Assembly (NCBI GenBank): GCA_046757965.1
Contig: JBHHZI010000002.1
Span: 2,253 to 66,252, forward strand
From: Acidobacteriota bacterium
GTDB lineage: Bacteria > Acidobacteriota > Polarisedimenticolia > SMYD01
Direction of reading: 5' to 3'
Length of the DNA stretch: 64,000 nt
Each line of letters starts with the position of its first letter. The first letter of the stretch is position 1. The notes beneath the pieces were generated by a model. That model ran no database searches and had not been told where the DNA came from. It saw nothing but the letters and a program-made list of their open reading frames with translations. Positions 15,813 through 36,624 of this stretch are shown here, piece by piece. Made by a program: the position numbers and the translations under genes.

Positions 15813-15858
15813 CCCGCGTCCCTCGCTGCACTCGCCCTCGGACGGCGGGTCGGTCCGG

Positions 15859-16986: not shown

Positions 16987-17117
16987 GGTGGGTGCGACCG
17001 TCTCACAGGTGGGGACGGAAGCGCAACTTTCCGGCCCCTGCGGCCATCCTTCGTTCTTGTCGAGCCCATGACGAGGGGATACGGTAGGAGCGCCCGTTCA
17101 TTCACCGGAGGCTGAAC

Positions 17118-18575: not shown

Positions 18576-20570
18576 TCACCTGGTGCGCACCTCGCCTGCC
18601 GTGGGGCCGGGATCCGGCTTCGGTCGACGCGAGACATTCAGCGCGATGATGGCCGCCAGCAGGAGGCCGCCGCCGAGCGCGAGGAGTGGCACGTCGACTC
18701 GACCGGCCGACCAGGTCGGCCCAGGAAAGAGGAGCAGGGCCGAGGCGAGGAAACAGCCGGCCCGTTCCATCGGACGCAGGGGCGCGATCAGGAAGCCCGC
18801 GATGCCGGCCGCGAACGGAACGATCCCCGCCACGGCCAGACCGACGGCGGCCACGACCGGCCCCGCCCCGGGCGGGCCCGCGCTGGCGTGGCCGGCCGCT
18901 TCGGGCGCGAGGAGAAGCAGCGCCGGGCGGAAGACGAACATGTACGGCAGGGTGAAGCCGACCAGGGCGAACCGGAACGCCGACAGCGAGGTGCGCACGA
19001 TGTTGGTGCCGGCGATCGACCCGGCCGTGTAGGCGGCCAGCGCCACGGGCGGTGTGACCATCGACATCATGCCGAAGTAGAAGATGAACAGGTGGGCCGC
19101 CAGGGGCACGATGCCGAGTCGACCGATCACCGGGCCGATGAGTGTGGCCATCAACAGGTAGCAGACCGCCGACGGCAGGCCCATCCCCAGGACGATGGAC
19201 GAGATCATGATGGCCACCAGGGCGAAGACGATGTTCTGCTGTGCCAGGGGGAGGAGCAGGGCGGGCAACCGTGTGCCGATGCCGGTGAGGGTCACCATGC
19301 CGAGCACGATGCCCACACAGGCGGCCGCGGCCACCAGCGGCACGGCGTCCGTCACCGTCTTGCGGACGACGGCGAGCAGATCGGCGGCGCCGAGGCGTGT
19401 GCGGGCATGCAGCAGGCTGATCCCGTACGCCACCGCCAGCGACAGGCTGACGGCGCGAAACGCCGAGTAGCCCAGCAGCAGAAAGAGGAGCAGGCCGGCG
19501 AAGGCGGCTGCGAACACCACGCCCTCGAAGCGGCGCACGGCGCCGGCCGGGACGGCGCCCGCCTGGCGGGGGCCGGCGGCGGCGCCGAAGCGGCGCGAGG
19601 TGAAGTGCACGATGAGCAGCAGAGAGAGGTAGTAGAGAGCGGCCGGCAGGATCGCCGCCTTGATGATCTGCAGGAAGGTCACCGGCGGGTCGATGATCTC
19701 CAGCATCATGTAGGCCCCGGCCCCCATGACCGGGGGCACGAGCGCGCCTCCGGAACTGGCGGCGGCCTCGATGCCCGCCGCCGTCTGGGCGCTGAAGCCG
19801 GCGCTGCGCATCATCGGGATCGTGAAGGTCCCGGTGGTTGCCGTGTTGGCGACGGCGCTTCCGGACAGCGATCCCATCAGGCCGCTGCTGAGCACCGCCA
19901 CCTTGGCCGGGCCTCCCGGACTCCGCGCGAATACCCGCCGGGCCACGTCGATGATGTAGCTAGTGGCGCCGGTGCGCGACAGGAAGACTCCCAGCAGTAC
20001 GAAGAGGAACACGTAGGTGAACATCACGCGCAGGGCGACGCTGAAGACACCCTGGCTGTGCAGAAAGGCCTGGGACACGATGCGCTCGACGGAATAGCCC
20101 CGGTGGGGGAGAAGCCACCCGGGCAACAGAGGTCCCGAGGCCGCGTAGAGGAGAAAGGCGCCGGCCAGGACGGGCAAGGCGAGTCCCAGGGTCCGCCGGG
20201 CGGCCTCCAGGACGAGCACCAGACCCACGATGCCGACCGCGATGTCTGCGCCGGTCTCCATCCCCGCCCGGTTCCCGAGGGAGGTGCTGCCGATCCAGAG
20301 GCGCGAGAACACCGGCTCGTTCTGCACGGCCACGAAACCACAGCAGCCGACCGCGAGCGTCACCAGCACGCCGTCGAGGCGGCGTGTCCAGCGGGAGGGA
20401 TCGCCGCGGCGAGCGGGAACCGTCAGGAAGCACAGGGTCAGGCCCAGCAAGGCGAAGAGGGCGAGCTGGGTCTGCGGCGTCAGGGTCGGGTGGTTCACCT
20501 CGACCAGAACCAGCCCCGCCAGGCCGATCGACAGGGCGGAGATCCCCACCCTCCGCACGGATCCGGCCAT
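18576..20570 (-). CDS. TRAP transporter fused permease (TAXI-type 4TM/12TM fusion).
   Basis: The 664-aa ORF has more than 16 hydrophobic helices and DctM-like segments. It is coupled to the upstream TAXI substrate-binding protein gene by a 1-bp overlap. Confidence 0.7.
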   Translation of the reverse strand: MAGSVRRVGISALSIGLAGLVLVEVNHPTLTPQTQLALFALLGLTLCFLTVPARRGDPSRWTRRLDGVLVTLAVGCCGFVAVQNEPVFSRLWIGSTSLGNRAGMETGADIAVGIVGLVLVLEAARRTLGLALPVLAGAFLLYAASGPLLPGWLLPHRGYSVERIVSQAFLHSQGVFSVALRVMFTYVFLFVLLGVFLSRTGATSYIIDVARRVFARSPGGPAKVAVLSSGLMGSLSGSAVANTATTGTFTIPMMRSAGFSAQTAAGIEAAASSGGALVPPVMGAGAYMMLEIIDPPVTFLQIIKAAILPAALYYLSLLLIVHFTSRRFGAAAGPRQAGAVPAGAVRRFEGVVFAAAFAGLLLFLLLGYSAFRAVSLSLAVAYGISLLHARTRLGAADLLAVVRKTVTDAVPLVAAAACVGIVLGMVTLTGIGTRLPALLLPLAQQNIVFALVAIMISSIVLGMGLPSAVCYLLMATLIGPVIGRLGIVPLAAHLFIFYFGMMSMVTPPVALAAYTAGSIAGTNIVRTSLSAFRFALVGFTLPYMFVFRPALLLLAPEAAGHASAGPPGAGPVVAAVGLAVAGIVPFAAGIAGFLIAPLRPMERAGCFLASALLLFPGPTWSAGRVDVPLLALGGGLLLAAIIALNVSRRPKPDPGPTAGEVRTR

Positions 20571-21577
20571 CAGGAGTCCGTCGCCGCTGCCTCCGGCCAG
20601 ACGCCGATCTCCCGGTAGTAACGCTCGGCGCCCGGATGGAACGGGATGCCGGTGTTGCGCGCGGCGTTCCTCGCGTTGATGGCCCGGCCCGCCGGATGCT
20701 TCTCCACCACCTGTGCCCGGTTCTCGTACAGCGCGCGCGTCAGCGCATAGATCAGGTTCTCGTCGGCGTCGGCCGACGTGATCAGGTGCATCGAGCCGAC
20801 GTCCAGCCCGCTGAACGGTTCATCCTGTCCTCTGTACGTTCCCGCCGGTACGGTCGCCGGGCGGAAGAAGACGTAGCGGGCGGTGAGCTGGTCGATGGCA
20901 TCGCGGTCGAAGGGGACGAAGCGCACGTCCTGCCCGGCGGTCGCCTGCGTGATGGATGCGGTGGGGATGGCCCCGCCGAGGAACGCCGCGGCGGCCGAGC
21001 CGTCCGCGAGCATGTCCACGGCGCCGGCCTGCGTGTTGTGGAGCGGCGTGAAGTCATCGTAGGTCAGGCCGTGGGCCGCGAGGAGCGGGCCGAGAAACGC
21101 CTCGAAGCCGGCGCCCGCCGGTCCGACGACCACCCGGCGCCCGGCGAGGTCGCGGATGGTGTGCACGTCCCCGCCGGCCGGGGCGATGAACAGGGCCACG
21201 TTCGGGGCCAGCGTCATGACCGCACGCACCGGATGCTTCTTCTTCCATGGCGCGTCGCCGCGGACCGCGAAGTAGCTGATGGCGGAGTTGGCGAGGGCGA
21301 GATCCAGCTCGCCGGCAACCAGACGCCGGATGTTCTCCTGCGATCCCTTGGTCGCCTCGGCTGTCACCGACCACCCGGCGCCGGGCGTGGCATCCAGCAC
21401 CTCGCTGATGGCGCCGCCGACGACGAAGAACGCCCCTCCCGGTGGGGCCGTGCCCACGCTGAGGAACCGTCGTCCGGCATCCTCTCCGCCCTGCTGCGAG
21501 GCCGGGCCGCAGGCCGGCAGCATCAACACCGCCAGTGCGATGCCGGCCAGCCAGAAGTGACGGGTGGTGCGAGACAT
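20570..21577 (-). CDS. TAXI-family TRAP transporter solute-binding protein, lipoprotein.
   Basis: It has a signal plus lipobox (LMLPACGP). The fold is TAXI-like (RFLSVGTAPPGGAFFVVGGAISEVL ... IPFHPGAERYYRE). Confidence 0.75.
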   Translation of the reverse strand: MSRTTRHFWLAGIALAVLMLPACGPASQQGGEDAGRRFLSVGTAPPGGAFFVVGGAISEVLDATPGAGWSVTAEATKGSQENIRRLVAGELDLALANSAISYFAVRGDAPWKKKHPVRAVMTLAPNVALFIAPAGGDVHTIRDLAGRRVVVGPAGAGFEAFLGPLLAAHGLTYDDFTPLHNTQAGAVDMLADGSAAAAFLGGAIPTASITQATAGQDVRFVPFDRDAIDQLTARYVFFRPATVPAGTYRGQDEPFSGLDVGSMHLITSADADENLIYALTRALYENRAQVVEKHPAGRAINARNAARNTGIPFHPGAERYYREIGVWPEAAATDS

Positions 21578-21664
21578 GTTCTCTCCGGACGATCGTGCGG
21601 GACGGATAAGAGGCCATCAGGCTAGAGGCCGGGGTGGGTGCTGTCAACGGCACCTCCTTGGACC

Positions 21665-21700
21665 GGTTACGGCGTTTTACCCGGTTTACAAGACTTTACA
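21665..21700. promoter_or_regulatory. Four helically phased TTAC/TTTAC direct repeats in the divergent TRAP/PQQ-cluster intergenic region.
   Basis: The sequence ggTTACggcgtTTTACccggTTTACaagacTTTACagg has 9-10-bp spacing, reminiscent of OmpR/PhoB-type direct-repeat operators. Confidence 0.3.
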
Positions 21701-21910
21701 GGCACGAGGGACGCGCTGGCCGGACGCTGTTGTAACGTTCGCCGGCACCGACCCGGTCCGACCTGGGCTGTAGTAAAGTGTTGCGCTGAAATGGCGTTAG
21801 TCCGTCGTTGCGCGCCCGTGGGTCGGGTGGGCGTCTGACGTGCCGGTCACGCGCGCCCGCGCAGGCGCGACCGGCGGGGTCCGGAGATCCGAGACGGAGA
21901 GGTGAGAGGA

Positions 21911-24124
21911 ATGAAGAGAGTGTCTTGCGTGGCAACGGCAGTCCGCTGCGTTGTCGTGGCCGGTCTTCTTCTGGTGTCCGGGGCCATCACGCCCGCGTCC
22001 GACTGGCCGAACTGGAGAGGGCCGCACCTGGATGGCGTTTCTGACGAGACCGGTCTGATCTCGTCCTGGTCACCCGAGGGCGAGCATGTGCTGTGGCACG
22101 CTGATTTCGTCGGGCGTTCCACACCTGTGGTCGTCGATGGACGGGCCTGCGTCATCGGGCGCACGGGCGAGGGCATCACTCGACAGGAGATCGTCGCCTG
22201 CTACGACGCCGCGGACGGCACGCTGCTCTGGGAGTACCGGTTCGACGTCTATCACACGACGGTGCCCTTCAATCGGGTCGGCTGGGCCTCGCTGGTGGCC
22301 GACCCCGACACGGGCAATGTCTACGCCCACGGGGTGGCCGGCCAGCTCATCGCATTCGCGCCGGACGGCGCGGTGGTCTGGTCGCACTTTCTGGCCGAGG
22401 AATTCGGACATCTCTCCGGCTACGGCGGCCGGACCCAGACGCCGATCATCGTCCATGACCAGGTGCTGATCAGCTTCATCAGTGCGGGCTGGGGCGACCA
22501 GGCGGCCCCACGCCACCGGTACTTCAGCTTCGACAAGCGCACCGGCGATCTGGTCTGGTCCGCCACGCCGGGGACCATGCCCTTCGACTTCAATACCCAG
22601 TCGATGCCGGTCCTGGCGACCATCAAGGGACGGGAGATGATCGTCACCGGCAACGGCGATGGCAGGATCTACGCCCTGGATGCCGTCACCGGCGACAAGA
22701 TCTGGGAGTTTGCCCTCGGCAAGCGCGGGCTCAACAGCACGGTGCTGGTGCACGGCGACCGGGTCTATGCCGGGCACAGCGAGGAGAACATCGACGATTC
22801 CGTCATGGGCCGGCTGGTCTGCATCGATGCGACCGGCCACGGTGACGTGACGCGCAGCCACGAGGTCTGGCGCATCGACGAGCTGATGGAAGGATTTCCG
22901 TCTCCGATCTACAAGAACGGGCGCCTCTACGTCGTGGACAACTCGGCCAACCTGCACAGCATCGACGCGGCCACCGGGAAGGAGTTCTGGACCACCAGTC
23001 TGGGCACGGTGGGCAAGGGGTCGCCGGTGTGGGCCGATGGCAAGATCTACGTGACAGAGGTGAACGGCCGCTTCCACATCCTGCGGCCCGGACCCGATGG
23101 CGTCGAGAAACTCGATGACGATTTCATCGGCGTGCCCGGCGGCAGGCACGCCGAGATCTACGGATCCCCCGCCATCGCCCATGGCCGCATCTACTTCGCC
23201 ACCGAGAACGGTGTGTACTGTCTGGGCACCCAGAATCATCCCGTTGAGAACTCTCCCCGGCGCACCGCGCGCGTGGCCCGGTTTGCCGGAACCGGTGACC
23301 CGGCGGTGGTCCAGGTGGTGCCGGCCGAGATCCTGATCCATCCGGGGGAGACCATCGACCTGGGGGTTCGCGTGCTGGACAGGGCGGGCCATCCGCTGCC
23401 GGCCGGCAAGGTGAACTGGAGTCTCGACGGTGTCAAGGGGCGCGTCGGTGCCGACGGCCGGTTCACGGCCGATGCCGGCGTGAAGACCCAGACGGGAGCC
23501 GTCGCCGCCCGGGTGGGAGAGATCTCCGGCAAGAGCCGGGTCCGTGTGATCAGTCCCTTGCCCTGGCAGATCGATTTCGACACCCTGGATGTGGGAGTCA
23601 CACCGGCCACCTGGATCGGCGCGAAGGGCAAGTTCGTGGTCTTCGACCTCGACGGGAACAAGGTGCTGCGCAAGGCGCCGCGGGCTCGCGGGCTCAACCG
23701 CAGCGCTCTGTACATGGGGCCGACCGAGCTGACCGGCTACACGATCGCCGCCGATGTGAGGGGCAGCCGGCAAGGCCGGCGGTTTGCCGATGTCGGGGTC
23801 ATCAACGCCGGCTACACACTGGATCTGCAGGGGGCCCACCAGAAGATCCAGGTCCGCTCGTGGGCGTCGGTCCTGCGCATGGCGAAGGAGGTGAAGTTCT
23901 CCTGGCAACCGGACACGTGGTACCGGATGAAGCTGCGTGTCGACAGGCACGACGGCAAGGCGCTGGTGCGGGGCAAGGTCTGGCCCCGGGACGCGGCCGA
24001 GCCGGCCGAATGGACGATCTCTGTGGATGACCCGGTACCGGTGGAGAGTGGCAGTCCGGGCCTTGTGGCCTACACGCCGGTGGATGCGTACTACGACAAC
24101 ATTTCCGTGACGGTGAACCCTTGA
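21911..24124 (+). CDS. Secreted PQQ-like (BamB-type) beta-propeller repeat protein with a C-terminal Ig-like plus LamG/DUF1080-like extension.
   Basis: It has a signal peptide. The motif DWPNWRGPHLDGVS followed by repeated blades (..G.LLWEY.., ..GDLVWSA.., ..GDKIWEF..) is typical of the PQQ-like repeat family (PF13360). The C-terminal region of about 300 aa is a jellyroll-like extension. The GGAGAGG ribosome-binding site precedes ATG 21911. The listed ORF starts at GTG 21902. Confidence 0.65.
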   Translation: MKRVSCVATAVRCVVVAGLLLVSGAITPASDWPNWRGPHLDGVSDETGLISSWSPEGEHVLWHADFVGRSTPVVVDGRACVIGRTGEGITRQEIVACYDAADGTLLWEYRFDVYHTTVPFNRVGWASLVADPDTGNVYAHGVAGQLIAFAPDGAVVWSHFLAEEFGHLSGYGGRTQTPIIVHDQVLISFISAGWGDQAAPRHRYFSFDKRTGDLVWSATPGTMPFDFNTQSMPVLATIKGREMIVTGNGDGRIYALDAVTGDKIWEFALGKRGLNSTVLVHGDRVYAGHSEENIDDSVMGRLVCIDATGHGDVTRSHEVWRIDELMEGFPSPIYKNGRLYVVDNSANLHSIDAATGKEFWTTSLGTVGKGSPVWADGKIYVTEVNGRFHILRPGPDGVEKLDDDFIGVPGGRHAEIYGSPAIAHGRIYFATENGVYCLGTQNHPVENSPRRTARVARFAGTGDPAVVQVVPAEILIHPGETIDLGVRVLDRAGHPLPAGKVNWSLDGVKGRVGADGRFTADAGVKTQTGAVAARVGEISGKSRVRVISPLPWQIDFDTLDVGVTPATWIGAKGKFVVFDLDGNKVLRKAPRARGLNRSALYMGPTELTGYTIAADVRGSRQGRRFADVGVINAGYTLDLQGAHQKIQVRSWASVLRMAKEVKFSWQPDTWYRMKLRVDRHDGKALVRGKVWPRDAAEPAEWTISVDDPVPVESGSPGLVAYTPVDAYYDNISVTVNP

Positions 24125-25596
24125 AGACAACGCAGATCGCACTGGCGGCGGTGACCATCGTGATGGCGGGCGGCATCCTGGCGCCCGCGGGGCAGGCCGG
24201 AGAGACGGCCGTGATGTTCGGCAACACGCCACAGCGCAACATGGTCTCAGCGGAGACCGGTCTCCCCGATCACTGGAACGTCGAATCCGGCGCCAACATC
24301 CTGTGGTCGGCGGAACTCGGCTCCCAGACCTACGCCGGGCCGGTGGTCTCCGACGGCCGGGTCTATGTCGGGACCAACAACCAGCGGCTGTACAATCCGA
24401 AGCTGAAGGGCGATCGGGGCAACATCATCGCCTTCGATGCGGCCACCGGGAAACTCATCTGGCAGGCGGCCCATGCCAAGCTCGGGGCCGGGCGCGTCAA
24501 TGACTGGCCCCTGCAGGGCATCTGTTCCACGCCGGCGGTCGATGGCAACCGCATCTACTATGTCTCCAATCGCGCCGAGGTGGTCTGCGCCGACACCGAG
24601 GGGTTTCGCGATGGTGAGAACGACGGACCGTTCACGTCCGAGACGGCGAAGGACGACATCGATGAGGATGTTGTCTGGAAGCTGGACATGATCGGTGAGC
24701 TGGATGTCTTCCCCCACAACCTGGCCGCCGGCAGCCCGCTGATCGTCGGGGACATGCTCTACACCATCACCGGCCAGGGGGTCGACGAGGGGCACGTGAA
24801 CATCCCGTTCCCCACAGCGCCCAGTTTTCTGGCCATCAACCGGAACACCGGCAAGGTCGTGTGGGAAAGCTCCGCCCCCGGCGACGAGGTGCTGCACGGC
24901 AGCTGGTCGAACCCGTCGTATGCGGTGGTCAACGGCAAGCCCCAGGTGCTGTTTCCCGGTGGCAACGGCTGGCTGTACGCGTTCGAGCCTTCGACCGGCA
25001 AGCTCATCTGGAAGTTCGATCTCAACCCGAAGGACTCGGTCTGGGAACTGGGCGGCTCGGGCACGCGCAACAACGTCATCTCCACCGCGGTCGTCGTGGA
25101 CGGTGTGGCCTACATCGGTGTCGGTCAGGATCCGGAACATGGCGAGGCTCCGGGCAACTTCTGGGCCATCGATGCCACCCAGGAGGGCGATGTCACCGGG
25201 AAGGGGATGGTCTGGCACCGGGGCGGCGAGGACTTCCACCGGACCCTGTCGACCGCCTCGGTATCCGATGGCCTTCTCTACATCGCCGATCTGAGTGGGT
25301 TCGTCTACTGCCTGGATGCGAAGACGGGTGAGCTCTACTGGAAGTACGACGCGTTCGCCGCCATCTGGGGCTCGACGTTCGTCGCTGACGGCAAGGTCTA
25401 CATCGGGGACGAGGATGGCGACATCGCGGTCTTGAAGGCGGGCAAGAAACTCGAGCTGATCAACGAGATGAACATGGGCACGGCGGTCTACACGACGCCG
25501 GTGGCTCACGACGGTGTCCTCTACGTGGCGAGCCGCAACCGGCTGTTCGCCATTGCCGCCGGCCACGATGCAGAGAAGGGTGCCGGCGGCTCGTGA
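24121..25596 (+). CDS. Secreted PQQ-like beta-propeller repeat protein (second).
   Basis: It has a signal peptide and blade repeats (GKLIWQA, GKVVWES, GKLIWKF, GELYWKY). The TTG start overlaps the upstream stop. Confidence 0.65.
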   Translation: MKTTQIALAAVTIVMAGGILAPAGQAGETAVMFGNTPQRNMVSAETGLPDHWNVESGANILWSAELGSQTYAGPVVSDGRVYVGTNNQRLYNPKLKGDRGNIIAFDAATGKLIWQAAHAKLGAGRVNDWPLQGICSTPAVDGNRIYYVSNRAEVVCADTEGFRDGENDGPFTSETAKDDIDEDVVWKLDMIGELDVFPHNLAAGSPLIVGDMLYTITGQGVDEGHVNIPFPTAPSFLAINRNTGKVVWESSAPGDEVLHGSWSNPSYAVVNGKPQVLFPGGNGWLYAFEPSTGKLIWKFDLNPKDSVWELGGSGTRNNVISTAVVVDGVAYIGVGQDPEHGEAPGNFWAIDATQEGDVTGKGMVWHRGGEDFHRTLSTASVSDGLLYIADLSGFVYCLDAKTGELYWKYDAFAAIWGSTFVADGKVYIGDEDGDIAVLKAGKKLELINEMNMGTAVYTTPVAHDGVLYVASRNRLFAIAAGHDAEKGAGGS

Positions 25597-26711
25597 CCAT
25601 GACGCCAGACGGCGGCACACGGAACGCAGGCCGCGATTCCGGCATGGCGGCCCGGGTCGCGGAGGCGCGGGCGCGCGTCGACGCTCATGTGCGGGACATC
25701 GTGCAGTGGCATTTCGATCCGGCGACCGGCTGTCCGTTCTGGCTCGAGCGCGCGAAGAGTCTGGACTTCGATCCCCGCGAGCAGGTGAAGGGCTACGCGG
25801 ACCTCGCACTGTTCGGTCATTTTCAGGACGAATGGCTGCGCGGTGGTCCGGTGCGGCGCTGGGTCCCGCAGGGGCTGGCCGACCGTCCGGTTTACGTGTT
25901 CGAGACCGGCGGCTCCACCGGCGTGCCGAAATCACGCATCAACATCGAGGACTTCAACAGGGACTACGAGATCTTCGGCGATGCCCTCTCCGACGACGGT
26001 TTCCCGCCGGGCAGCGACTGGCTGATGCTCGGGCCCACCGGCCCCCGCCGCCTGCGGCTGGCGGTGGAGCACCTGGCCCACCACCGGGGAGGGATCTGCT
26101 TCTTCGTCGATCTCGATCCCCGCTGGGTGAGCAAGCTGGTCCGCGCCCGCCGGTTCGCGGAGATGGAGGCGTACAGGAACCACGTCATCGATCAGGCTCT
26201 CACGGTGCTCAGGGCGCACGATTCCATCCGGTGTCTGTTCACCACGCCGAAGCTGCTGTCGGCCCTGTGCGAGAAGATCTCCATCGAGAAGGCGGGTATC
26301 ACGGGTGTGTTCTGCGGCGGCACCGAGATGACCGCCCAGTTCAACCGGCTGGTGCGGGAGGAGCTGGCGCCGGGCGTCGATTTCGTGCCGACCTACGGCA
26401 ACACCCTCATGGGCCTGGCGATGCCGGGGCCGTTCGACCCCGCCGATGACTACGCCATCACCTACTACCCGCCCGTGCCACGAGCGGTGTTCGAGCTGGT
26501 CGATCCCGACAACCCGGCCGTGTCGGTCGACTACGGGGAGACGGGCCGCGTGATGCTGACGACCTTGACCCGCGAGTTCTTCATGCCGCGCTTTCTCGAG
26601 CGGGATGAGGGGGTCCGTGCCCGCCCGTGCGAGAGATTCCCGTGGGACGGGGTCACCAATCTCGGCCTCCTGTCGTCCCTGCAGGCGTCGGTGGCGGTCG
26701 GGGTGTACTGA
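25593..26711 (+). CDS. LuxE-like acyl-protein synthetase / adenylate-forming enzyme (PaaK-like fold).
   Basis: The 372-aa length is LuxE-like. A P-loop FETGGSTGVPK is present. A Cys near the C-terminus (RPCERFPW) sits where LuxE carries its acylated Cys. The gene is coupled to a LuxC-like reductase gene. Confidence 0.5.
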   Translation: MTMTPDGGTRNAGRDSGMAARVAEARARVDAHVRDIVQWHFDPATGCPFWLERAKSLDFDPREQVKGYADLALFGHFQDEWLRGGPVRRWVPQGLADRPVYVFETGGSTGVPKSRINIEDFNRDYEIFGDALSDDGFPPGSDWLMLGPTGPRRLRLAVEHLAHHRGGICFFVDLDPRWVSKLVRARRFAEMEAYRNHVIDQALTVLRAHDSIRCLFTTPKLLSALCEKISIEKAGITGVFCGGTEMTAQFNRLVREELAPGVDFVPTYGNTLMGLAMPGPFDPADDYAITYYPPVPRAVFELVDPDNPAVSVDYGETGRVMLTTLTREFFMPRFLERDEGVRARPCERFPWDGVTNLGLLSSLQASVAVGVY

Positions 26712-28162
26712 TGCTCCACCTGCCGGTGCTGCGGGCCGGCCGCCCATACCGCAGTCTTGACACCATCACCCTGACGGACGTGCGCAGCGGGGAGCCGGTC
26801 GCCACGGTCAGCCAGGCCGGCGCCGCCATGATCGCCCATGACATGGCGGGCGGACACGCACGGCGCCGTCGGCTCCAGGAGATCGGCAGCGCCGCCCGGC
26901 TGGACATCTGCAGGAAAGCCGCGGGCCTGTTCATCGGCGAGTCTCTGCCCGCCGGCGACCGTGTCCAGTCTCCCGCAGACTACGTCGCCTGCCTGTCGGC
27001 AACCACCGGCATGCCGGAGGCGCTGTGCCGGGCCAACATGAAGAAGATCCATTTCGTCCTGGACCGCATGGATGTGGTGCTGGCCGGCCTGACCCGCGGT
27101 CTGGATCTGGACATCGTCGATGCCGGGCACGGCGTGATGGCCGGCCGGCCGGTCGCATACGTCTGTGAGGCGGACCGCCTCGGGGCCGTCCTGCCGAGCA
27201 ACTCGCCCGGGGTGCATTCTCTCTGGATCCCGGCCGTCGCGCTGGGCGTGCCGGTCGTCCTGCGCCCGGGGAGTCGCGAACCCTGGACACCCGTTCGCAT
27301 TGCACAGGCGCTGATCGCTGCGGGGCTGCCCCCGGAGGCCATCAGCTTCTACCCCGGCGGCCATGACGGCGCCACCGAGATCGTGCTGAGAAGTGAGCGG
27401 TCCATGGTCTTCGGGGACGAATCGACGGTTCTTCCGTGGGTCTCGGATCCGCGCGTACAGATTCACGGGCCCGGCTGGAGCAAGGTCCTCCTCGCCGATG
27501 CCGCCGCCTCCTCCTCGCGCGACCATCTCGACCTGATGGTCACCAGCATCGCCGCCAACGGGGGTCGCTCGTGCATCAACGCCTCCGGCGTCTGGACGAC
27601 CTCCGGAGGGGAGGCTCTGGCCGACGCCCTGGCCGGGCGATTGGCCAGGATGAGCGCCCGACCGCTCGACGATCCCGAGGCGAGCCTGGCCGCGTTCTCC
27701 GACCCGGACGTGGCGTCACGCATCGATCAGTTCATCGAGCAGCGCCTGGCGGTGCCGGGGGCCCGGGACATCACGGCGGAGGTGCGCGGCACACCGCGCC
27801 GGGCCCGGGTCGACGGGTGCACGTTCCTGCTGCCGACGATCATTCACGTCACCGAGCCGGATCACCCGCTGGCGGCGGCGGAGTTCCTGTTCCCGTTCGC
27901 GGCGGTGGTGGAGCGACCCCGGGAGTCGATGCTGAGCGCCCTCGGGCCCACCCTGGTCTGCACGGCGATCACGGGCGACCCAGCTCTTGCGCGCGAGCTG
28001 ATGGACTGCGGCTCGATCGAGCGTCTCAACCTGGGGCCGATCCCGACGACCCAGGTGTCGTGGGACCAGCCTCACGAGGGCAACCTGTTCGAGCATCTGT
28101 TCCGGCAGCGGGCGTTCTGCGCGGCGAGAAACGGGCGGCCGGCGGGGACCGGGGCGGCCTGA
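26711..28162 (+). CDS. LuxC-like acyl-CoA reductase (ALDH superfamily, aldehyde-forming).
   Basis: The ATG overlaps the upstream TGA. It has an ALDH-type catalytic Cys context (IAANGGRSCINASGVWT). Its length (about 483 aa) and position after the LuxE-like gene match the luxC/luxE pairing. Confidence 0.55.
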   Translation: MLHLPVLRAGRPYRSLDTITLTDVRSGEPVATVSQAGAAMIAHDMAGGHARRRRLQEIGSAARLDICRKAAGLFIGESLPAGDRVQSPADYVACLSATTGMPEALCRANMKKIHFVLDRMDVVLAGLTRGLDLDIVDAGHGVMAGRPVAYVCEADRLGAVLPSNSPGVHSLWIPAVALGVPVVLRPGSREPWTPVRIAQALIAAGLPPEAISFYPGGHDGATEIVLRSERSMVFGDESTVLPWVSDPRVQIHGPGWSKVLLADAAASSSRDHLDLMVTSIAANGGRSCINASGVWTTSGGEALADALAGRLARMSARPLDDPEASLAAFSDPDVASRIDQFIEQRLAVPGARDITAEVRGTPRRARVDGCTFLLPTIIHVTEPDHPLAAAEFLFPFAAVVERPRESMLSALGPTLVCTAITGDPALARELMDCGSIERLNLGPIPTTQVSWDQPHEGNLFEHLFRQRAFCAARNGRPAGTGAA

Positions 28163-28163
28163 C

Positions 28164-29360
28164 ATGGGCCATGATCCTCGCCTACCGGTCGTGTCCCGAC
28201 CGGGGCCGGATGGAATCTTTCCGGTGCCGGCCGGCGTCTCCTGGGAGGCCCATGTCGGTCCGACGCGCGTCCTGGCCGGATGTGGTGCCCTCGAGCGGCT
28301 GGGGAGTCTGGCGCGGGATCTCGGGGGCAAGCGCGTCCTCGTGGTGACCGATGCCGGTCTGCGGCGGGCCGGACACGTGGAGCGCGGCGTGGCGTCGCTG
28401 AGGGCGGCCCGGGTCACGCCCGTGGTGTTCGATGGGGTGCAGGAGAACCCGACCTCGACGCAGGTGGACGCCGGCACGGCGTTCGCGCGCGATCACGACA
28501 TCGATCTGATCGTCGGGCTCGGAGGCGGCAGTTCGATGGACACGGCCAAGGGCATCAACTTCATCCTCACCAACGGCGGCACCATGGCCGACTACCGGGG
28601 ACGCGGAAAGGCGAGCCAGGCCATGCTCGGCTCCATCGGTGTGCCGACCACTGCCGGCACGGGAAGCGATGCCCAGTCGTATGCGCTGATCTCTGATCCG
28701 GTGACCCGTGTGAAGATGGCGTGCGGGGATCCCAAGGCCCGCTTCACGGCGGTGATTCTCGATCCGGCGCTCTCGCTCACCCAGCCGGAGCACACCACGG
28801 CGGTCACGGCCCTGGATGCCATCGGCCACGCCGTGGAGACGTTCGTGACCAGGAGTCGAACTCCCGTGTCGAGTCTCTACGCGCGGGAATCCTGGCGTCT
28901 GCTGTCGAGCCACCTGCCGCGGGTGCTCGCCACCCCTGCCGATCTCGACGCCCGTGCGGCCATGTTGTGGGGTGCCCACCTGGCCGGGGCCGCCATCGAG
29001 GCCTCAATGCTCGGCGCCGCGCACGCCTGCGCCAACCCGCTGACCTCCCGGTGCCGGCTGGAGCACGGCGTGGCCGTGGCCCTGATGCTGCCGCACGTCG
29101 TCTCGTTCAACCGGCCGGCCGTTGGCGCCGAGTACGGCGAATTGATGTCGATCATCGGTGCGGTCGGAGACGACTTGGCGGAGCGCATCGTGCTCCTGCG
29201 CGGCGCGGCAGGCCTGCCGGGTCGGCTGCGAGATTGCGGGGTGACCGAGGCGGACCTGCAGCCGATGGCCGGCGAGGCGGCCGCGCAATGGACGGGTCAG
29301 CACAACCCGGTGGAATTGACCGTGGACGCGGCGCGGAAGCTCTATGACGCCGCGTACTGA
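28164..29360 (+). CDS. Iron-containing (group III) alcohol dehydrogenase.
   Basis: Motifs include GKRVLVVTDAGL, the Gly-rich LIVGLGGGSSMDTAKG, and His-rich metal-site regions (LDAIGHAVE, AHACANPL). Confidence 0.75.
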   Translation: MGHDPRLPVVSRPGPDGIFPVPAGVSWEAHVGPTRVLAGCGALERLGSLARDLGGKRVLVVTDAGLRRAGHVERGVASLRAARVTPVVFDGVQENPTSTQVDAGTAFARDHDIDLIVGLGGGSSMDTAKGINFILTNGGTMADYRGRGKASQAMLGSIGVPTTAGTGSDAQSYALISDPVTRVKMACGDPKARFTAVILDPALSLTQPEHTTAVTALDAIGHAVETFVTRSRTPVSSLYARESWRLLSSHLPRVLATPADLDARAAMLWGAHLAGAAIEASMLGAAHACANPLTSRCRLEHGVAVALMLPHVVSFNRPAVGAEYGELMSIIGAVGDDLAERIVLLRGAAGLPGRLRDCGVTEADLQPMAGEAAAQWTGQHNPVELTVDAARKLYDAAY

Positions 29361-30519
29361 ACCGGACCGCCGGGGTGTGGTCGCCGCCGCGTGTGGCCTG
29401 CTGGCGTGCGGCCTCGCCGGACCGGCGCCGGCAGGGGACTGGACGACCTTCCGGGGGAACGCCCGCCTGACCGGGCAGGCCAGCGGGATGCTTCCCGAGG
29501 ACCCCGCGGTGCTGTGGACGTTCGAGAGCGAGGACGGCTTCGCCTCCACCGCCGCCATCGAGAAGGATGTGGTGTACGCGGCCTCTCTCGACGGCCGGCT
29601 CCGGGCCCTGCGCCTCGCCACCGGCAAGGTTCTCTGGACCCACGATGTGGGCACGGAGATCAAGTCGTCGCCGGCCGTGCGGGACGGCACGGTCTACTTC
29701 GGTGACGAGGACGGTGTGGTGCACGCCCTCTCGGCGGCCGACGGCCGTTCGCTCTGGACCTACACCACCGGCTCGGCGGTCAGCTCCTCACCGAATTTTT
29801 CCGGCGAGGCGCTGCTCATCGGCTCGCAGGATAATTCCCTCTACAGCCTGGATCGCCGTGACGGAACTCTACGGTGGAAGCTCACGACCGGTTCGTATGT
29901 CTACGCGACGCCGGCGGTGGTCGCCGGGAACGATGCCGTGGCGATCCTGGCCGGGTGCGACGGGTTGCTGCGGTCGGTCCGCGTGCGTGACGGGGAGGAA
30001 CTGGCCAGCGTCGAGGTCGGCGGATACGTCGGGGCCAGTCCGGCGGTCGACGGCTCGGTTGCCTTCGTCGGCACGTTCGAGAACCAGTTCGTGGCGGTGG
30101 ATCTTTCCGCCTGGGCAGTGCTGTGGCGGTTCGAGGATCCCGAACGCAAGTTCCCGTTCTACTCGTCGGCGGCTGTCGCGAAGGACGTCGTCGTGGTTGG
30201 CGGCCGGGACAAGAAGATCCACGCGCTCGACCCGCTCACCGGAAAACCGCTCTGGGAGTACATGTCGAAGGCCCGGGTCGATTCCTCGCCCGTCATCCTG
30301 GGCCCGCGGGTCTTCGTCGGCACCATGGCCGGCGAGATCCTGGCCCTCGACCTGCACACGGGAAAGGTAAGGTGGCGATTCGACACGGGATCCGCTGTGC
30401 TCGCCTCGCCCAGTATTGCCTCCGACCGGCTTGTCATCGGCACGCTGGACGGCGTGCTGTACTGCTTCGGTGCGCCGCCACCGGCGCCGGATGTTCCACC
30501 CACCTCGAGGACACCATGA
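29344..30519 (+). CDS. Secreted PQQ-like beta-propeller repeat protein (third).
   Basis: It has a signal peptide and the DWTTFRGNARLTGQ motif. Blades include GKVLWTH, GRSLWTY, GTLRWKL, AVLWRF, GKPLWEY and GKVRWRF. Confidence 0.65.
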   Translation: MTPRTEPDRRGVVAAACGLLACGLAGPAPAGDWTTFRGNARLTGQASGMLPEDPAVLWTFESEDGFASTAAIEKDVVYAASLDGRLRALRLATGKVLWTHDVGTEIKSSPAVRDGTVYFGDEDGVVHALSAADGRSLWTYTTGSAVSSSPNFSGEALLIGSQDNSLYSLDRRDGTLRWKLTTGSYVYATPAVVAGNDAVAILAGCDGLLRSVRVRDGEELASVEVGGYVGASPAVDGSVAFVGTFENQFVAVDLSAWAVLWRFEDPERKFPFYSSAAVAKDVVVVGGRDKKIHALDPLTGKPLWEYMSKARVDSSPVILGPRVFVGTMAGEILALDLHTGKVRWRFDTGSAVLASPSIASDRLVIGTLDGVLYCFGAPPPAPDVPPTSRTP

Positions 30520-31847
30520 GCGAAACCTCGTCGAGGACGCCGCCGCCCCCGGCCGGTGAGACCGAGGTGGGCAGCGTCTTCGTTTCCAACTATCCGCCGT
30601 ACTCGTTCTGGCGCGACGAGGCCCTTTCCGACCTGGACCGCCGGCTGGCGTCACCGCCGGAAGCCGGCGCGACGTTCGGTCTGTATCTGCATGTGCCGTT
30701 CTGCCGGAAGCGATGCAAGTTCTGCTACTTCCGGGTCTACACCGACCGTGACAGCAAGCAGATCGCGCGCTACCTGTCGGGCCTCGCCGGCGAGGTGGAA
30801 CGGTGTCTGCAGCACCCGGCATTTGCCGCCCGGGCGCCGGAGTTCATCTACTTCGGCGGCGGCACGCCGTCGTTCCTGAGCGTTCGCCAGATCGAGGCGC
30901 TGGTGGGGCGGCTGCGTGGCGCCGTGGAATGGGACGCGGCGCAGGAAATCACCTTCGAATGCGAGCCGGGAACCCTCAGCGCGCCGAAGCTCGAGGCGCT
31001 GCGCGGCATCGGTGTGAATCGCCTGAGCCTGGGGGTGGAGAGCTTCAACGACGAGATCCTCGCGGAGAACGGGCGCGCCCATCTGTCGGCCGAGATCGAG
31101 CGGGTCGTGCCCTGGATCGCGGCGCTGGACTTCGACCAGCTCAACATCGACCTGATCGCCGGCATGGTGGGCGAGACGTGGGAGAGCTGGCGCGAGTCGG
31201 TGCACCGCACCCTGGAGATCGAGCCGGAGAGCATCACCATCTATCAGATGGAGCTGCCGTTCAACACCGTCTACTCATCGGAGGTCATCGGCGGCACGCG
31301 GCCGATGCCCGTGGCGGGCTGGGACCTGAAGCGGGACTGGCACACATGGGCCTTCGAGCAGATGGAGGCGGCTGGATACGAGGTGTCCAGCTCCTATACG
31401 ATGGTCCGCAGGGAGCGGCCCGGTCGGTTCGTCTACCGGGACGCGGTCTGGCACGGCTGCGACATGCTCGGGGCCGGCGTGGCCTCGTTCTCCCACCTCG
31501 GGGGCATTCACTTCCAGAACCTGGCCTCCTGGGAGCCGTACCTCACGCGGGTCGAGGCCGGCCGGATGCCGGTCGAGCGGGCGTTTGCGACCAGCGCCGA
31601 GGACCGACTCGTGAGGGAGACGATCCTGCAGCTCAAGCTGGGCCATCTGTCACCGGACTATTTTCTGGAAAAGTTCGGCGTGGACATCCGGGACCGGTTC
31701 AGCGCCTCGTTTGATGAGCTGCGCGCGGAGGGCTGGATGGCCGACGAGATGGACTCTCTCAGGTTGACCCGGCGTGGGCTCATCCAGGTCGATCAGCTTC
31801 TGCCACGTTTCTATGCCCCGGAGTATCGCAACGCGCGCTACACCTGA
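30516..31847 (+). CDS. Radical SAM enzyme, HemN/HemW-like (oxygen-independent coproporphyrinogen-III-oxidase-like family).
   Basis: The CX3CX2C motif CRKRCKFCYF is present. HemN-like features follow (GGGTPSFLS, LSLGVESFNDEIL, the HemN C-terminal domain). The ATG at 30516 overlaps the PQQ-3 stop. The listed ORF is extended upstream. Confidence 0.75.
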   Translation: MSETSSRTPPPPAGETEVGSVFVSNYPPYSFWRDEALSDLDRRLASPPEAGATFGLYLHVPFCRKRCKFCYFRVYTDRDSKQIARYLSGLAGEVERCLQHPAFAARAPEFIYFGGGTPSFLSVRQIEALVGRLRGAVEWDAAQEITFECEPGTLSAPKLEALRGIGVNRLSLGVESFNDEILAENGRAHLSAEIERVVPWIAALDFDQLNIDLIAGMVGETWESWRESVHRTLEIEPESITIYQMELPFNTVYSSEVIGGTRPMPVAGWDLKRDWHTWAFEQMEAAGYEVSSSYTMVRRERPGRFVYRDAVWHGCDMLGAGVASFSHLGGIHFQNLASWEPYLTRVEAGRMPVERAFATSAEDRLVRETILQLKLGHLSPDYFLEKFGVDIRDRFSASFDELRAEGWMADEMDSLRLTRRGLIQVDQLLPRFYAPEYRNARYT

Positions 31848-31865
31848 GACGGGAGAGCCAGACTC

Positions 31866-33125
31866 ATGAGCAGCCATCACGACGTGATCATCATCGGCGG
31901 GGGACCCGCCGGCGCGACGGTGGCGGCCCTGGAGGCCGAGGCCGGTCGCGACGTGATGGTCCTCGAGCGGGACACCTTCCCGCGCTTCCACATCGGCGAA
32001 TCTCTCATGCCGGCCACCTACTGGACCTTCGAGCGGCTCGGCGTGCTCGACAAGCTGGCGGCGGCAGGATTCGTGCGCAAGCAGAGCGTCCAGTTCTTCT
32101 CGTCCGGCGGCAAGGGGGCGCTGCCGTTCTACTTCTCCGATTTCGATCCTCATCCCAGCTCCGTCAGCTTCCAGGTGGAACGCAGCACATTCGATACGAT
32201 CCTGCTGGAGCATGCGAAGGAGAACGGAGCGCAGGTGTCACACGGCGTCAACGTGACCGGTGTGCTGCTCGAGGGGAAGCGCGTGACCGGTGTGCGAACC
32301 GCCGGCGGCACGGGAGGCGCCCGTGAGCTGACGGCGCCCGTGGTCGTCGATGCCAGCGGGCAGCATGCTCTCCTGTCCCGTCGTTTCGGCCTGATGCGCA
32401 CGGACCCGCGTCTTCGGCACTGCGCCTACTTCACCCGCTTTGCCGGCGCGGCTCGCGCCGCAGGGCGGGACGAGGGGGCCACGCTGATCCTTCACGTCGG
32501 CGGCGGGTCGTCGTGGTTCTGGTACATCCCGCTCCCCGGTGACCGGGTCAGCGTGGGTGTCGTCGGACACATCGACCGCCTGGTCCGGGGCCGGGCGCCC
32601 GATCCGCAGCAGGTGTTCGACGAGGAGGCGGCGCGCTGTCCGGCGCTGCAGGAGCGCCTCGCCGGCGCGACGCAGGAGGGGCGTGTGGAGGTCCAGCGAG
32701 ACTTCTCCTACGCCGCGAAGGCGATCGCCGGCGATGGCTGGGTGCTGGCCGGCGACGCGTTCGGCTTTCTCGACCCGATCTATTCCTCCGGCATCTTCCT
32801 GGCCCTGAAGGGCGCGGAATTCGCCGCGGATTCCATCGAAGCCGCATTCGACCACGATGACTTCTCGGCCACGAGGCTGGGTGCCCACGGCCCCGAGTTC
32901 ATCGCCGGCATGGAGGCGCTGCGGCGGCTCGCCTACGCCTACTACGACGAATCGTTCAACTTCCGGCATTTTCTGTCGCGCCACCCGGAGCATCGCACGG
33001 ACCTGATCCATCTTCTCATCGGTAACGTGTACCGGCGATCATGCACCGGCATCTTCGAGTCCATGAACCACGAATCTCCACAGGACGGATACGAACCGCT
33101 CCGCCTGCCCTCAGACGGATCGTGA
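31866..33125 (+). CDS. FAD-dependent flavin-halogenase-like oxidoreductase (tryptophan-halogenase family fold).
   Basis: It carries the GxGxxG FAD motif (IIGGGPAGA). The halogenase-family WxWxIP motif is present (SWFWYIPLPGD). The second signature FxxPxxSxG is also present (FLDPIYSSGI). Whether the catalytic Lys is present is uncertain from reading by eye. Confidence 0.55.
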   Translation: MSSHHDVIIIGGGPAGATVAALEAEAGRDVMVLERDTFPRFHIGESLMPATYWTFERLGVLDKLAAAGFVRKQSVQFFSSGGKGALPFYFSDFDPHPSSVSFQVERSTFDTILLEHAKENGAQVSHGVNVTGVLLEGKRVTGVRTAGGTGGARELTAPVVVDASGQHALLSRRFGLMRTDPRLRHCAYFTRFAGAARAAGRDEGATLILHVGGGSSWFWYIPLPGDRVSVGVVGHIDRLVRGRAPDPQQVFDEEAARCPALQERLAGATQEGRVEVQRDFSYAAKAIAGDGWVLAGDAFGFLDPIYSSGIFLALKGAEFAADSIEAAFDHDDFSATRLGAHGPEFIAGMEALRRLAYAYYDESFNFRHFLSRHPEHRTDLIHLLIGNVYRRSCTGIFESMNHESPQDGYEPLRLPSDGS

Positions 33126-33349
33126 ACCGCCCGGTCCGGCTGCTGCTGGTCGTGGCGGCGGCGACGTTGTACGTGCTGCACAACGATGTCTGGCTGTGGA
33201 ACGACAGCCGCCGTGTCCTCGGGTTGCCCGCCAGCCTGGCGTATCACGTGGCGTACTGCCTGGCCGCGGCCGTGCTGATGGGGCTCTTCGTGGGCTTCGC
33301 CTGGCCCCATGAGGGGGATGACGACGCCGTCGAGGGTCCTCCCCGGTGA
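33122..33349 (+). CDS. Small membrane protein (DUF3311-like, typical partner of sodium:solute symporters).
   Basis: It is about 75 aa with two hydrophobic helices (LLLVVAAATLYVL, AYCLAAAVLMGLFVGF). It lies immediately 5' of the symporter gene with a 4-bp overlap. The GTG start is inferred. Confidence 0.35.
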   Translation: MNRPVRLLLVVAAATLYVLHNDVWLWNDSRRVLGLPASLAYHVAYCLAAAVLMGLFVGFAWPHEGDDDAVEGPPR

Positions 33350-36134: not shown

Positions 36135-36571
36135 AGTCGAGCGTCCCGTTCGTGGCCCGTCGCACCGTGGAGTTCTCCGATTCGGACATGGGTGGCGTGG
36201 TGCATTTCTCCCGTTACCTGGTGTACATGGAGACGGCGGAGCACCAGTTCCTGAGGTCCCGGGGCATCGAGGTGCATGCCGAGTTCGAGGGCCGGTTGCT
36301 GAGCTGGCCGCGCGTGGCGATCCGCTGCGAATACCGGCAGGCCGCGCGGTTTCGCGATGCCATCGACATCGAGGTGCGCGTTCTGCGCCGGGGAACACGG
36401 TCGGTGACCTACGGGTTCCGGCTGCGCCGGGCCGATGAGGACCTGGCGACCGGTGAGATGACCGCGGTCTGCTGCGTCGTGGATCCGGGCACGGGAACGT
36501 TGCAGTCGGTGGAGATTCCTGCCGCCATCGCTGCGGCCATCGGTGAGGGCGAGCGAGACGGAACGAGCTGA
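36131..36571 (+). CDS. Hotdog-fold acyl-CoA thioesterase (YbgC/FadM / 4HBT family).
   Basis: The 146-aa length and the motif DSDMGGVVHFSRYLVYMETAEHQFL (catalytic Asp near the N-terminus) fit 4HBT-type thioesterases. Confidence 0.65.
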   Translation: MKSSVPFVARRTVEFSDSDMGGVVHFSRYLVYMETAEHQFLRSRGIEVHAEFEGRLLSWPRVAIRCEYRQAARFRDAIDIEVRVLRRGTRSVTYGFRLRRADEDLATGEMTAVCCVVDPGTGTLQSVEIPAAIAAAIGEGERDGTS

Positions 36572-36624
36572 CGGCGCGGTCGGCGACGCCACGAGGACGT
36601 CGTCAGCGATGAGGACGGAGGGCG

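Follow-up and report, generated by a model that had tools for sequence, protein, structure and literature searches.

The genes that we denote P1, P2 and P3 lie next to each other on the forward strand of a 64,000-nucleotide stretch of DNA (hereafter, the window; G+C content ~69%) from an Acidobacteriota bacterium of the lineage Polarisedimenticolia (GenBank assembly GCA_046757965.1, contig JBHHZI010000002.1, positions 2,253 to 66,252). Together, they probably encode a two-component carboxylate reductase dependent on ATP and NAD(P)H, of the EhpF/EhpG type and resembling GriC/GriD as the latter are described, joined by an alcohol dehydrogenase; the substrate is more likely to be an aryl or heteroaryl carboxylate than a fatty acid. 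We assign this reading a probability of roughly 0.6. A preliminary description of the same DNA, made from the sequence alone, had interpreted the triad as a LuxE-like, a LuxC-like and an iron alcohol dehydrogenase gene whose products convert a fatty acid to an aldehyde and then to an alcohol. The acid-to-aldehyde-to-alcohol logic agrees with the homologies of all three proteins and is probably right, but the analysis supports neither the LuxE and LuxC families nor the fatty-acid substrate.

The three open reading frames are tightly packed. P1 (25593-26711, + strand) encodes an adenylating enzyme of 372 amino acids if translation is taken to begin at a GTG, which shares bases with the stop codon (TGA) of the preceding gene (24121-25596); the deposited P1 model, P0001 (from an Acidobacteriota metagenome-assembled genome, 67-kb contig), has 370 amino acids, which places the start at an ATG at 25599. 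The ATG of P2 (26711-28162, + strand; 483 amino acids), an aldehyde dehydrogenase (ALDH) superfamily protein, overlaps the P1 stop codon as TGATG, and P3 (28164-29360, + strand; 398 amino acids), an iron-containing (group III) alcohol dehydrogenase, starts one base past the P2 stop. The composition of all three is of the coding type, with a G+C content at third codon positions of 0.85-0.88. The coordinates, start/stop coupling, protein lengths and alcohol dehydrogenase family given in the preliminary description are all borne out, except that P1 is possibly the 370-residue form.

P1 belongs to the family of EhpF, the phenazine-modifying adenylating enzyme of Pantoea agglomerans (structures 3HGU, 3HGV and 3L2K). 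The P1 sequence matches the PDB sequence of EhpF over residues 31-360 (E = 8e-44), and a profile of the P1 family aligns with EhpF over its full length (positions 14-363; 7e-95), the next best matches being PaaK structures at 4e-5 over ~80 residues. P1 and the authentic P. agglomerans EhpF are 31% identical end to end (2e-46), and P1 is co-linear with this 366-residue protein to the last residue. The sole Pfam match is AMP-binding, at 22.6 bits, below the cutoff; position 372 of the 384 in this profile is reached at P1 residue 320, with ~50 residues remaining. P1 is thus a truncated ANL protein that consists of the N-terminal domain with its P-loop and lacks the C-terminal domain, which harbors the A10 Lys and takes part in thioester formation. 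The P-loop FETGGSTGVPK and the residues E336, R337 and D338 are invariant among the P1 orthologues.

A library of 1.84 billion representative proteins holds 280 EhpF-family clusters at E ≤ 1e-30, which makes the family a small one. It includes proteins in which an EhpF-like domain is naturally fused to a Zn-dependent alcohol dehydrogenase (P0328, 725 amino acids) or to a class-III aminotransferase (P0300, 824 amino acids). These fusions tie the family to aldehyde-using enzymes, and the two proteins may be single-chain variants of acid-to-alcohol and acid-to-amine modules, respectively. In NCBI records, P1 relatives of the actinobacterial clade go by the name 'arylcarboxylate reductase'. No NCBIfam hidden Markov model bears this name, and we found no paper using the term. 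Two genes with this name, in loci L004 and L087 (related loci are cited here by L numbers), have no adjoining ALDH gene. In L004 (region 8905-18032 of a Streptomyces sp. NBC_00316 plasmid), the EhpF-like gene is located directly upstream of an 8-kb type I polyketide synthase (PKS) gene, and the EhpF-like protein may load an aryl starter unit as the adenylate.

The LuxE-like label attached to P1 in the preliminary description does not hold. LuxE employs a conserved C-terminal Cys as the acyl-enzyme intermediate, and P1 has no conserved Cys. The C-terminal motif RPCERFPW, with Cys346, is indeed present, but the acyl-accepting role ascribed to it is not borne out by the family: among 82 P1 orthologues, position 346 is Cys in 35, Ile in 26 and Thr in 11; this Cys is missing from EhpF-like proteins; and no Cys is invariant in the 82 sequences. 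With so partial a conservation, Cys346 cannot be an essential acyl acceptor, so a LuxE-style acyl-Cys on P1 is excluded as a property of the family, and the lack of a conserved Cys argues for a direct hand-off of the adenylate. The search with Pfam PF04443 (LuxE) gave no match to P1 even at E ≤ 10, and we reject membership in this family. Membership in the PaaK family is rejected as well: TIGR02155 does not match at E ≤ 0.01, and the profile match to PaaK structures is weak and partial. The 'PaaK-like' label that P1 carries in the JGI annotation is a COG-level name.

P2 is, in turn, the counterpart of EhpG. It is 26% identical to the authentic Pantoea EhpG over the full length (3e-39) and 29-31% identical to the EhpG-like partners encoded on E. 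coli and Streptomyces plasmids; the match to Pfam Aldedh has E = 3e-12. An AF2 model of P2 (pLDDT 90.2) has the classical ALDH fold, with a TM-score of ~0.73 to ALDHs at 14-18% identity, and a Foldseek comparison with this model confirms the fold without separating reductive from oxidative ALDHs. Three active-site residues do not vary in the P2 family: the catalytic Cys288, the oxyanion Asn164 and Glu391. In contrast, the position of the ALDH general base (Glu268; ELGGKSP) is occupied in P2 by His252, in the invariant GPGWSK, and by Gln or Arg in EhpG-like proteins. Lacking this Glu, the enzyme cannot hydrolyze the thioacyl intermediate, which fits a protein that receives an activated acyl group and then reduces it. 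By analogy with its relatives, we propose that P2 is an NAD(P)H-dependent reductase that would convert an acyl-adenylate, by way of a thioester, to the aldehyde. With its invariant residues P5, L7, R8, Y13 and S15, the N-terminus of P2 is a candidate element for docking to P1.

The search with Pfam PF05893 (LuxC), which was suggested along with the LuxC-like label for P2, detected nothing at E ≤ 10, and NCBIfam NF052251 gave no match at E ≤ 0.01, the NCBIfam models in general returning nothing specific for P1 or P2; nor is LuxC among the top PDB sequence or fold matches of P2. One EhpG-like relative matches NF052251 weakly (1e-4, 21 bits). Membership in the LuxC family is accordingly rejected for P2. 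The motif GGRSCINASG that had prompted the label does contain the catalytic Cys288, but this context is common to the whole ALDH superfamily and is not LuxC-specific. The preliminary description had also named an outcome that would speak against it, namely grouping of P1 with phenylacetate-CoA ligases and of P2 with generic, oxidative ALDHs. This outcome is seen by half: in P1 searches PaaK comes second, far behind EhpF, whereas generic ALDHs are indeed the best-scoring matches of P2, although P2 lacks their hydrolytic Glu.

P3 is a clear member of the Pfam family Fe-ADH (PF00465; 5.8e-47, 159.8 bits against a cutoff of 31.3) and matches ADH_Fe_C with E = 2.7e-32. Conserved in 44 P3 orthologues are the nucleotide motif GGGS and several Asp and His positions (in DAIGHAVE, GAAHACANP and HGVAV), which we take to be metal ligands. 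P3 is the candidate for the aldehyde-to-alcohol step.

Clustering at 90% leaves more than 8000 relatives of P1, the closest 120 of which are 71-78% identical to it. A scan of species-representative genomes for P1 yielded 80 loci at 52-76% identity, and the proteins of the window were mapped onto 83 loci. Across phyla, the P1 clade retains 55-78% identity. P1 and P2 adjoin in 76 of the 83 loci, and Fe-ADH comes next in 46 of the 64 loci where this could be determined, so that the arrangement of the triad is not due to chance. The loci belong to at least nine, mostly uncultured phyla: within Acidobacteriota, they are found in Thermoanaerobaculia, Polarisedimenticolia, Vicinamibacterales and Terriglobia, and beyond it, in Latescibacterota, Calditrichia, KSB1, Poribacteria, Gemmatimonadota, Planctomycetota, Verrucomicrobiota and Kiritimatiellia. 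Pairing of EhpF- and EhpG-type genes extends further, to plasmids of Pantoea, E. coli, Burkholderia, Streptomyces and haloarchaea. In a plasmid collection, all 10 records with a P2-like gene, two from haloarchaea included, also contain a P1-like gene; P1-like genes are present in 29 records.

In most of the loci, the gene order starts with two genes for secreted beta-propellers of the PQQ_2 type, followed by P1, P2, Fe-ADH, a third propeller and a HemN-like radical S-adenosylmethionine (SAM) enzyme. Next come, often, a fourth propeller and a TonB-dependent receptor, then a flavin-dependent halogenase and, sometimes, a DUF3311 protein with a symporter. At the end are the genes for a GT4 glycosyltransferase, in some loci a thioesterase, then a LolD-like ABC ATPase and a duplicated FtsX permease. 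Terriglobia and Vicinamibacterales have a reduced form, P1-P2-GT4-ABC-FtsX, without Fe-ADH, in which the GT4 gene is directly 3' of P2.

The closest functional comparison is provided by the ehp cluster, for which we used the authentic genes from a P. agglomerans plasmid; the enzymes EhpF-O turn phenazine-1,6-dicarboxylate into D-alanylgriseoluteic acid (PMC3175449). The similarities to P1 and P2 are extensive: ehpF and ehpG overlap, EhpF is a short ANL protein without the C-terminal domain, and EhpG shares the catalytic Cys, the loss of the general-base Glu and a C-terminal PH(D/E)G motif. Downstream, the ehp cluster encodes an oxidoreductase of the short-chain dehydrogenase/reductase (SDR) type, and its product carries a hydroxymethyl group; here, Fe-ADH stands in place of the SDR. 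Bera and colleagues (in 2010) are said to have described EhpF as devoid of the ANL C-terminal domain and to have found that deletion of ehpF leads to accumulation of phenazine-1,6-dicarboxylate. They reportedly proposed that EhpF and EhpG reduce the dicarboxylate to the 6-formyl compound via the adenylate. Compared with EhpF, the P1 clade forms a subfamily of its own, very strongly conserved and set in a different operon. Searching the whole window by tblastn with PhzA/B, PhzD, PhzE, PhzF and PhzG produced no hits at E ≤ 1e-3, and the Pantoea ehp queries matched only the genes corresponding to EhpF and EhpG. A local phenazine pathway is rejected, there being no phz genes in the window, and the substrate must therefore differ from that of EhpF/EhpG, with the module representing a member of the family employed in a different pathway.

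Another pair comes from the grixazone pathway of Streptomyces griseus. GriC, an AMP-binding protein, activates 3-amino-4-hydroxybenzoate to its acyl-AMP, from which GriD produces the aldehyde by reduction (Suzuki et al. 2007, as summarized in PMC10179220). In that summary, the architecture and chemistry are the same as those of P1 and P2, a likeness of description and not of compared sequences. As described there, the gri system includes no dedicated alcohol dehydrogenase step and differs in substrate and pathway context.

The luminescence enzymes LuxE and LuxC are a mechanistic analogue, in that an acyl group is activated at the expense of ATP, transferred to the Cys of an ALDH-superfamily reductase and reduced to the aldehyde by NADPH. 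In the Lux system, the substrate is tetradecanoic acid, supplied by LuxD, and P1, P2 and P3 have no partner of this kind beside them. The non-luminous context noted in the preliminary description is confirmed: among the open reading frames scanned against Pfam, which make up most but not all of the window, there are neither luxAB-like nor phenazine core genes. Type I carboxylic acid reductases of Nocardia and Mycobacterium, with the A-PCP-R architecture, catalyze the same net reaction, from acid, ATP and NADPH to the aldehyde, often with aryl acids, but are single polypeptides with a phosphopantetheinyl carrier and an SDR-type reductase. Here, the candidate reductase, P2, has the ALDH fold, and Pfam detected neither a PP-binding (carrier) nor an NAD_binding_4 domain in P1, P2, P3 or their operon neighbors.

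A further parallel is with the 'Halo_AMP' clusters of sponge microbiomes, in which an AMP-binding enzyme is combined with a flavin-dependent halogenase, often along with PQQ-like domains, radical SAM enzymes, TonB receptors, glycosyltransferases and thioesterases, and the product is not known (bioRxiv 10.64898/2026.08.03.742642, August 2026). These clusters come from Acidobacteriota, Latescibacterota and Poribacteria, so that both content and taxa match the operon described here, although orthology is not confirmed for any individual cluster. The preprint reads the AMP-binding enzyme as a PaaK-like ligase, and the terms aldehyde dehydrogenase and alcohol dehydrogenase do not occur in its text.

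From the gene structure, homology, residue conservation and synteny, we infer the direction of the reaction, the cofactor, the class of substrate and the fate of the product as follows. P1 would convert ATP and a carboxylate to the acyl-adenylate (R-CO-AMP), and the acyl group would pass directly to Cys288 of P2 as a thioester. With no general-base Glu to promote hydrolysis, the thioester would be reduced by NAD(P)H to the aldehyde, which P3 would then reduce to the primary alcohol. Other enzymes of the operon would then halogenate or alkylate the alcohol, or the aldehyde in genomes without the dehydrogenase, and attach a sugar to it, and the resulting small molecule would be secreted through the exporter.

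Nothing points to the fatty acid postulated in the preliminary description, and all relatives with a known or annotated substrate use an aryl carboxylate. Because the substrates known for relatives are aryl acids, because NCBI calls the actinobacterial clade 'arylcarboxylate reductase', and because the co-conserved halogenase, with its invariant Lys and WxWxIP motif, and the class C-like radical SAM enzyme are of kinds that typically modify electron-rich rings, an aryl or heteroaryl acid is favored over a fatty acid, if only weakly.

The operon that contains the triad spans 21902-40661 on the + strand and includes ~15 translationally coupled genes, mostly with overlaps of 1-4 nucleotides. A scan of 21450-41400 for promoters and terminators detected nothing above chance. 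The first gene (21902-24124) encodes a PQQ_2/BamB-like secreted beta-propeller of 740 amino acids (PQQ_2, 7.5e-32) with a hydrophobic N-terminus and a ~300-residue C-terminal extension; orthologues are located upstream of P1 in ~55 loci, some of these being weak (23-28% identity) paralogous cross-hits. The second secreted propeller of this type (24121-25596; 491 amino acids; PQQ_2, 8.2e-30) has orthologues with 60-74% identity directly 5' of P1 in most of the ~58 matched loci, a few of the matches being weak and paralogous. The third (29344-30519; 391 amino acids; Beta-prop_ACSF4, 2.8e-55, and PQQ_2, 1.5e-44), possibly a lipoprotein, is retained 3' of Fe-ADH in 45 loci. The propellers of the operon weakly match the NCBIfam family 'acido-empty-quinoprotein', and a fourth propeller is present in sister loci, for example, L002:16237-17457. 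The secreted propellers are candidates for periplasmic tailoring enzymes, binding proteins or cofactor-dependent enzymes.

Two tailoring enzymes follow. The HemN-like (class C-type) radical SAM enzyme (30516-31847; 443 amino acids; Radical_SAM, 7.9e-19, plus HemN_C) has HemN (1.5e-33) and the methyltransferase NocN (1.1e-30) as the best PDB matches, and its CxxxCxxC motif is invariant in 39 orthologues. For the flavin-dependent halogenase family protein (31866-33125; 419 amino acids), the best PDB matches are all halogenases, namely 8zop (2e-55), PltA (3e-53), 5buk (1.1e-52; deposited as an FADH2-dependent halogenase and presumably Mpy16), CndH, Bmp2 and CmlS. The motif WFWYIP (WxWxIP) and Lys72 are invariant in 22 orthologues, and the assignment as a halogenase is solid. 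Judging by their conserved motifs, the halogenase, the radical SAM enzyme and other members of the operon look catalytically competent. Conservation of a halogenase across phyla outside classical nonribosomal peptide synthetase (NRPS) and PKS clusters is unusual.

The remaining genes are mostly concerned with transport and glycosylation. A small DUF3311 membrane protein (33041-33349; 1.5e-8) precedes a sodium:solute symporter (33346-34809; SSF, 6.5e-42; nearest NCBIfam families PanF, PutP and MctP), a candidate carboxylate importer. The ATG of the GT4 glycosyltransferase gene (34806-36134; Glycos_transf_1, 5.8e-23) overlaps the symporter stop as ATGA, and an N-terminal CxxC of the protein is invariant in 18 orthologues (C23/C26 counted from the ATG at 34806, equivalent to C21/C24 from 34812). 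Then come a 146-residue thioesterase of the 4HBT fold, YbgC/FadM-like (36131-36571; 4HBT_2, 3.2e-13; NCBIfam YbgC, 2.8e-17, below the cutoff), a LolD/MacB-type ABC ATPase (36625-37323; ABC_tran; NCBIfam LolD, 8.4e-73, and DevA, 3.5e-46) and a duplicated FtsX-type permease (37320-40661; Pfam FtsX and MacB_PCD) that together with the ATPase forms a candidate exporter. On the opposite strand, divergent from the operon, a TAXI-type TRAP transporter is encoded at 18576-21577 (solute-binding protein and fused permease); it may import a carboxylate substrate. The clusters of L019 and L024 are likewise preceded by this TRAP-TAXI pair; L019 is from a cultured carrier, Acidobacteria bacterium Mor1, whose operon is at ~4.795-4.816 Mb of CP011806.1.

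The composition of the operon suggests that its product is a tailored, glycosylated and exported small molecule. In ~20 related loci, a TonB-dependent receptor is encoded between the radical SAM and halogenase genes (for example, L019:16273-18411, L001:17625-19808 and L002:17519-19666), and two of the three receptors tested reach the cutoff of a curated siderophore-receptor subfamily; the scanned reading frames of the window include no TonB-dependent receptor of this type. Given the siderophore-type receptors of sister loci, the product could be a metallophore, or the receptors could serve salvage uptake; the location of these receptors inside the loci, along with the MacB/Lol-type exporter, is what brings the metallophore to the fore. 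A tentative and rather doubtful proposal is that the operon product is secreted, derives from a reduced aryl or heteroaryl carboxylate by halogenation or alkylation and by glycosylation, and might serve as a metallophore or else as a periplasmic cofactor or ligand for the PQQ-like 'empty' propellers, with the triad supplying a benzylic alcohol for glycosylation. Two other ideas on the substrate were discarded. Adenylation and reduction of a peptide C-terminus, as for a ribosomally synthesized and post-translationally modified peptide, was set aside, the tightly packed operon leaving no room for a conserved precursor reading frame. A tetrapyrrole or PQQ was considered in view of the HemN-like enzyme, weak PqqU-like receptor matches and the PQQ-like propellers, and has no support beyond these resemblances.

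Several observations weigh against the assignment of the triad to aryl carboxylate reduction. The identity of the clade to characterized relatives is just 26-37%. P1 lacks the ANL C-terminal domain, the usual source of the catalytic Lys for adenylation. Three long loci (L043, L045 and L082) have P1 without an adjoining P2. Fe-ADH is missing from 18 of the 64 determinable loci (in Terriglobia, Vicinamibacterales and some Calditrichia), so not every locus includes the alcohol step, and what is handed on may really be the aldehyde. The closest solved halogenases, PltA, Bmp2 and 5buk, act on substrates bound to a carrier protein, and the operon has no carrier protein. The importers, that is, the symporter, the divergent TRAP-TAXI transporter and the TonB receptors of sister loci, suit uptake and catabolism equally well, and a GT4 enzyme beside a Lol/Dev-like exporter and a YbgC/FadM-like thioesterase would suit a lipidic alcohol too.

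This last point leads to the alternative that fares best, in which a LuxE/LuxC-like fatty acid reductase and Fe-ADH would provide a fatty alcohol destined for wax, ether-lipid or alkyl-glycoside synthesis. The overall chemistry would be the same as in the model we favor, and the glycosyltransferase, the LolD/DevA-like ATPase with FtsX and the thioesterase would be appropriate for an exported glycolipid, for which export of heterocyst glycolipids by DevBCA is a comparable case; the reduced clusters contain, besides P1 and P2, precisely the GT4-ABC-FtsX set. Nevertheless, we consider this alternative unlikely: the Pfam and NCBIfam searches found no LuxE or LuxC match, Cys346 is not conserved, P1 groups with EhpF, in whose family the known substrates are aryl acids, electron-rich aromatic or heteroaromatic compounds are the usual targets of enzymes like the co-conserved halogenase and the HemN-like radical SAM enzyme, and the operon has no genes for fatty-acid synthesis or acyl carriers.

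Alternatively, P1 could be a stand-alone ligase that forms an amide or ester, as proposed for the 'Halo_AMP' clusters, P2 and P3 being unrelated redox tailoring enzymes. The preprint regards co-located AMP-binding and halogenase genes as the core of clusters for small, halogenated products of peptidic nature and reports PaaK-like best matches for the adenylating enzymes (10.64898/2026.08.03.742642). The actinobacterial homologues without an adjoining ALDH gene, beside the type I PKS in L004 and in L087, point in the same direction, as do the three loci with P1 alone. However, P1 and P2 adjoin or overlap in the great majority of the loci (76/83) and in the authentic ehp cluster, every plasmid record with a P2-like gene has a P1-like gene, P2 lacks the Glu required for ordinary ALDH turnover, and the operon encodes neither a donor-forming enzyme for an amine or alcohol nor a condensation enzyme, all of which makes a stand-alone ligase quite improbable.

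The least probable alternative is that the pathway runs in the oxidative, catabolic direction, in which an imported alcohol would be oxidized to the aldehyde by Fe-ADH and then to thioacyl-P2, whose acyl group would yield acyl-AMP with PPi and, by reversal of P1, the acid and ATP; the linked importers listed above (TRAP-TAXI also in L019 and L024, TonB receptors in ~20 sister loci), the need of P2, devoid of the hydrolytic Glu, for an acyl acceptor when oxidizing, and the near-equilibrium overall chemistry of AMP-forming acyl-CoA synthetases speak for it, but EhpF and EhpG are said by Bera and colleagues (2010) to work reductively, the halogenase, glycosyltransferase and exporter in one operon point to biosynthesis, and we know of no precedent for ATP synthesis via an EhpF-type enzyme. 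The GriC/GriD relatives, too, run reductively in the account summarized in PMC10179220.

Two-component reductases of the EhpF/EhpG and GriC/GriD kind have so far come from a few antibiotic pathways, in Pantoea, Xenorhabdus and Streptomyces. The P1-P2 module is a very widespread and strongly conserved subfamily within a deeply conserved orphan operon of many uncultured phyla. If the pair is indeed a reductase, as we favor, and not a PaaK-like ligase next to a generic dehydrogenase, the reading of such clusters changes, those of the 'Halo_AMP' type included, and the module would offer a concrete way into the biochemistry of a product that may be ecologically widespread. Carrier-free carboxylate reductases could also be of use as biocatalysts.

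Some other genes of the window deserve mention. An FG-GAP/ASPIC-UnbV (CRTAC1-like) protein recurs near P1-P2 clusters in different phyla (53537-56187 in the window, L002:5254-9925 and L058:16587-18317); it is paired with a TPR protein in the window and with a cytochrome-c-like TPR protein in L002, where it is directly 5' of P1. The end of the operon is convergent with a stand-alone response regulator gene (40694-41269), part of a signaling block that continues on the - strand (41285-45530) with a PAS-PAS histidine kinase, a response regulator with an HDOD domain and an unannotated reading frame of ~385 amino acids (41285 to ~42440). The glyoxylate shunt is represented by malate synthase (50351-52015) and isocitrate lyase (52070-53350), beside a divergently oriented gene (48816-50252), whose product is a short-chain acyl-CoA regulator with helix-turn-helix and M78 peptidase-like domains. 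At the other end of the window, the - strand of 90-6785 encodes a multihaem cytochrome c with paired CXXCH motifs, followed by NHL-repeat beta-propeller proteins and a 580-residue protein without a Pfam match. Finally, a gene for an SNF2-family helicase with a SWIM zinc finger (12173-15088) is unusually G+C-rich at the first codon position (0.80) and is overlapped by long antisense open reading frames.

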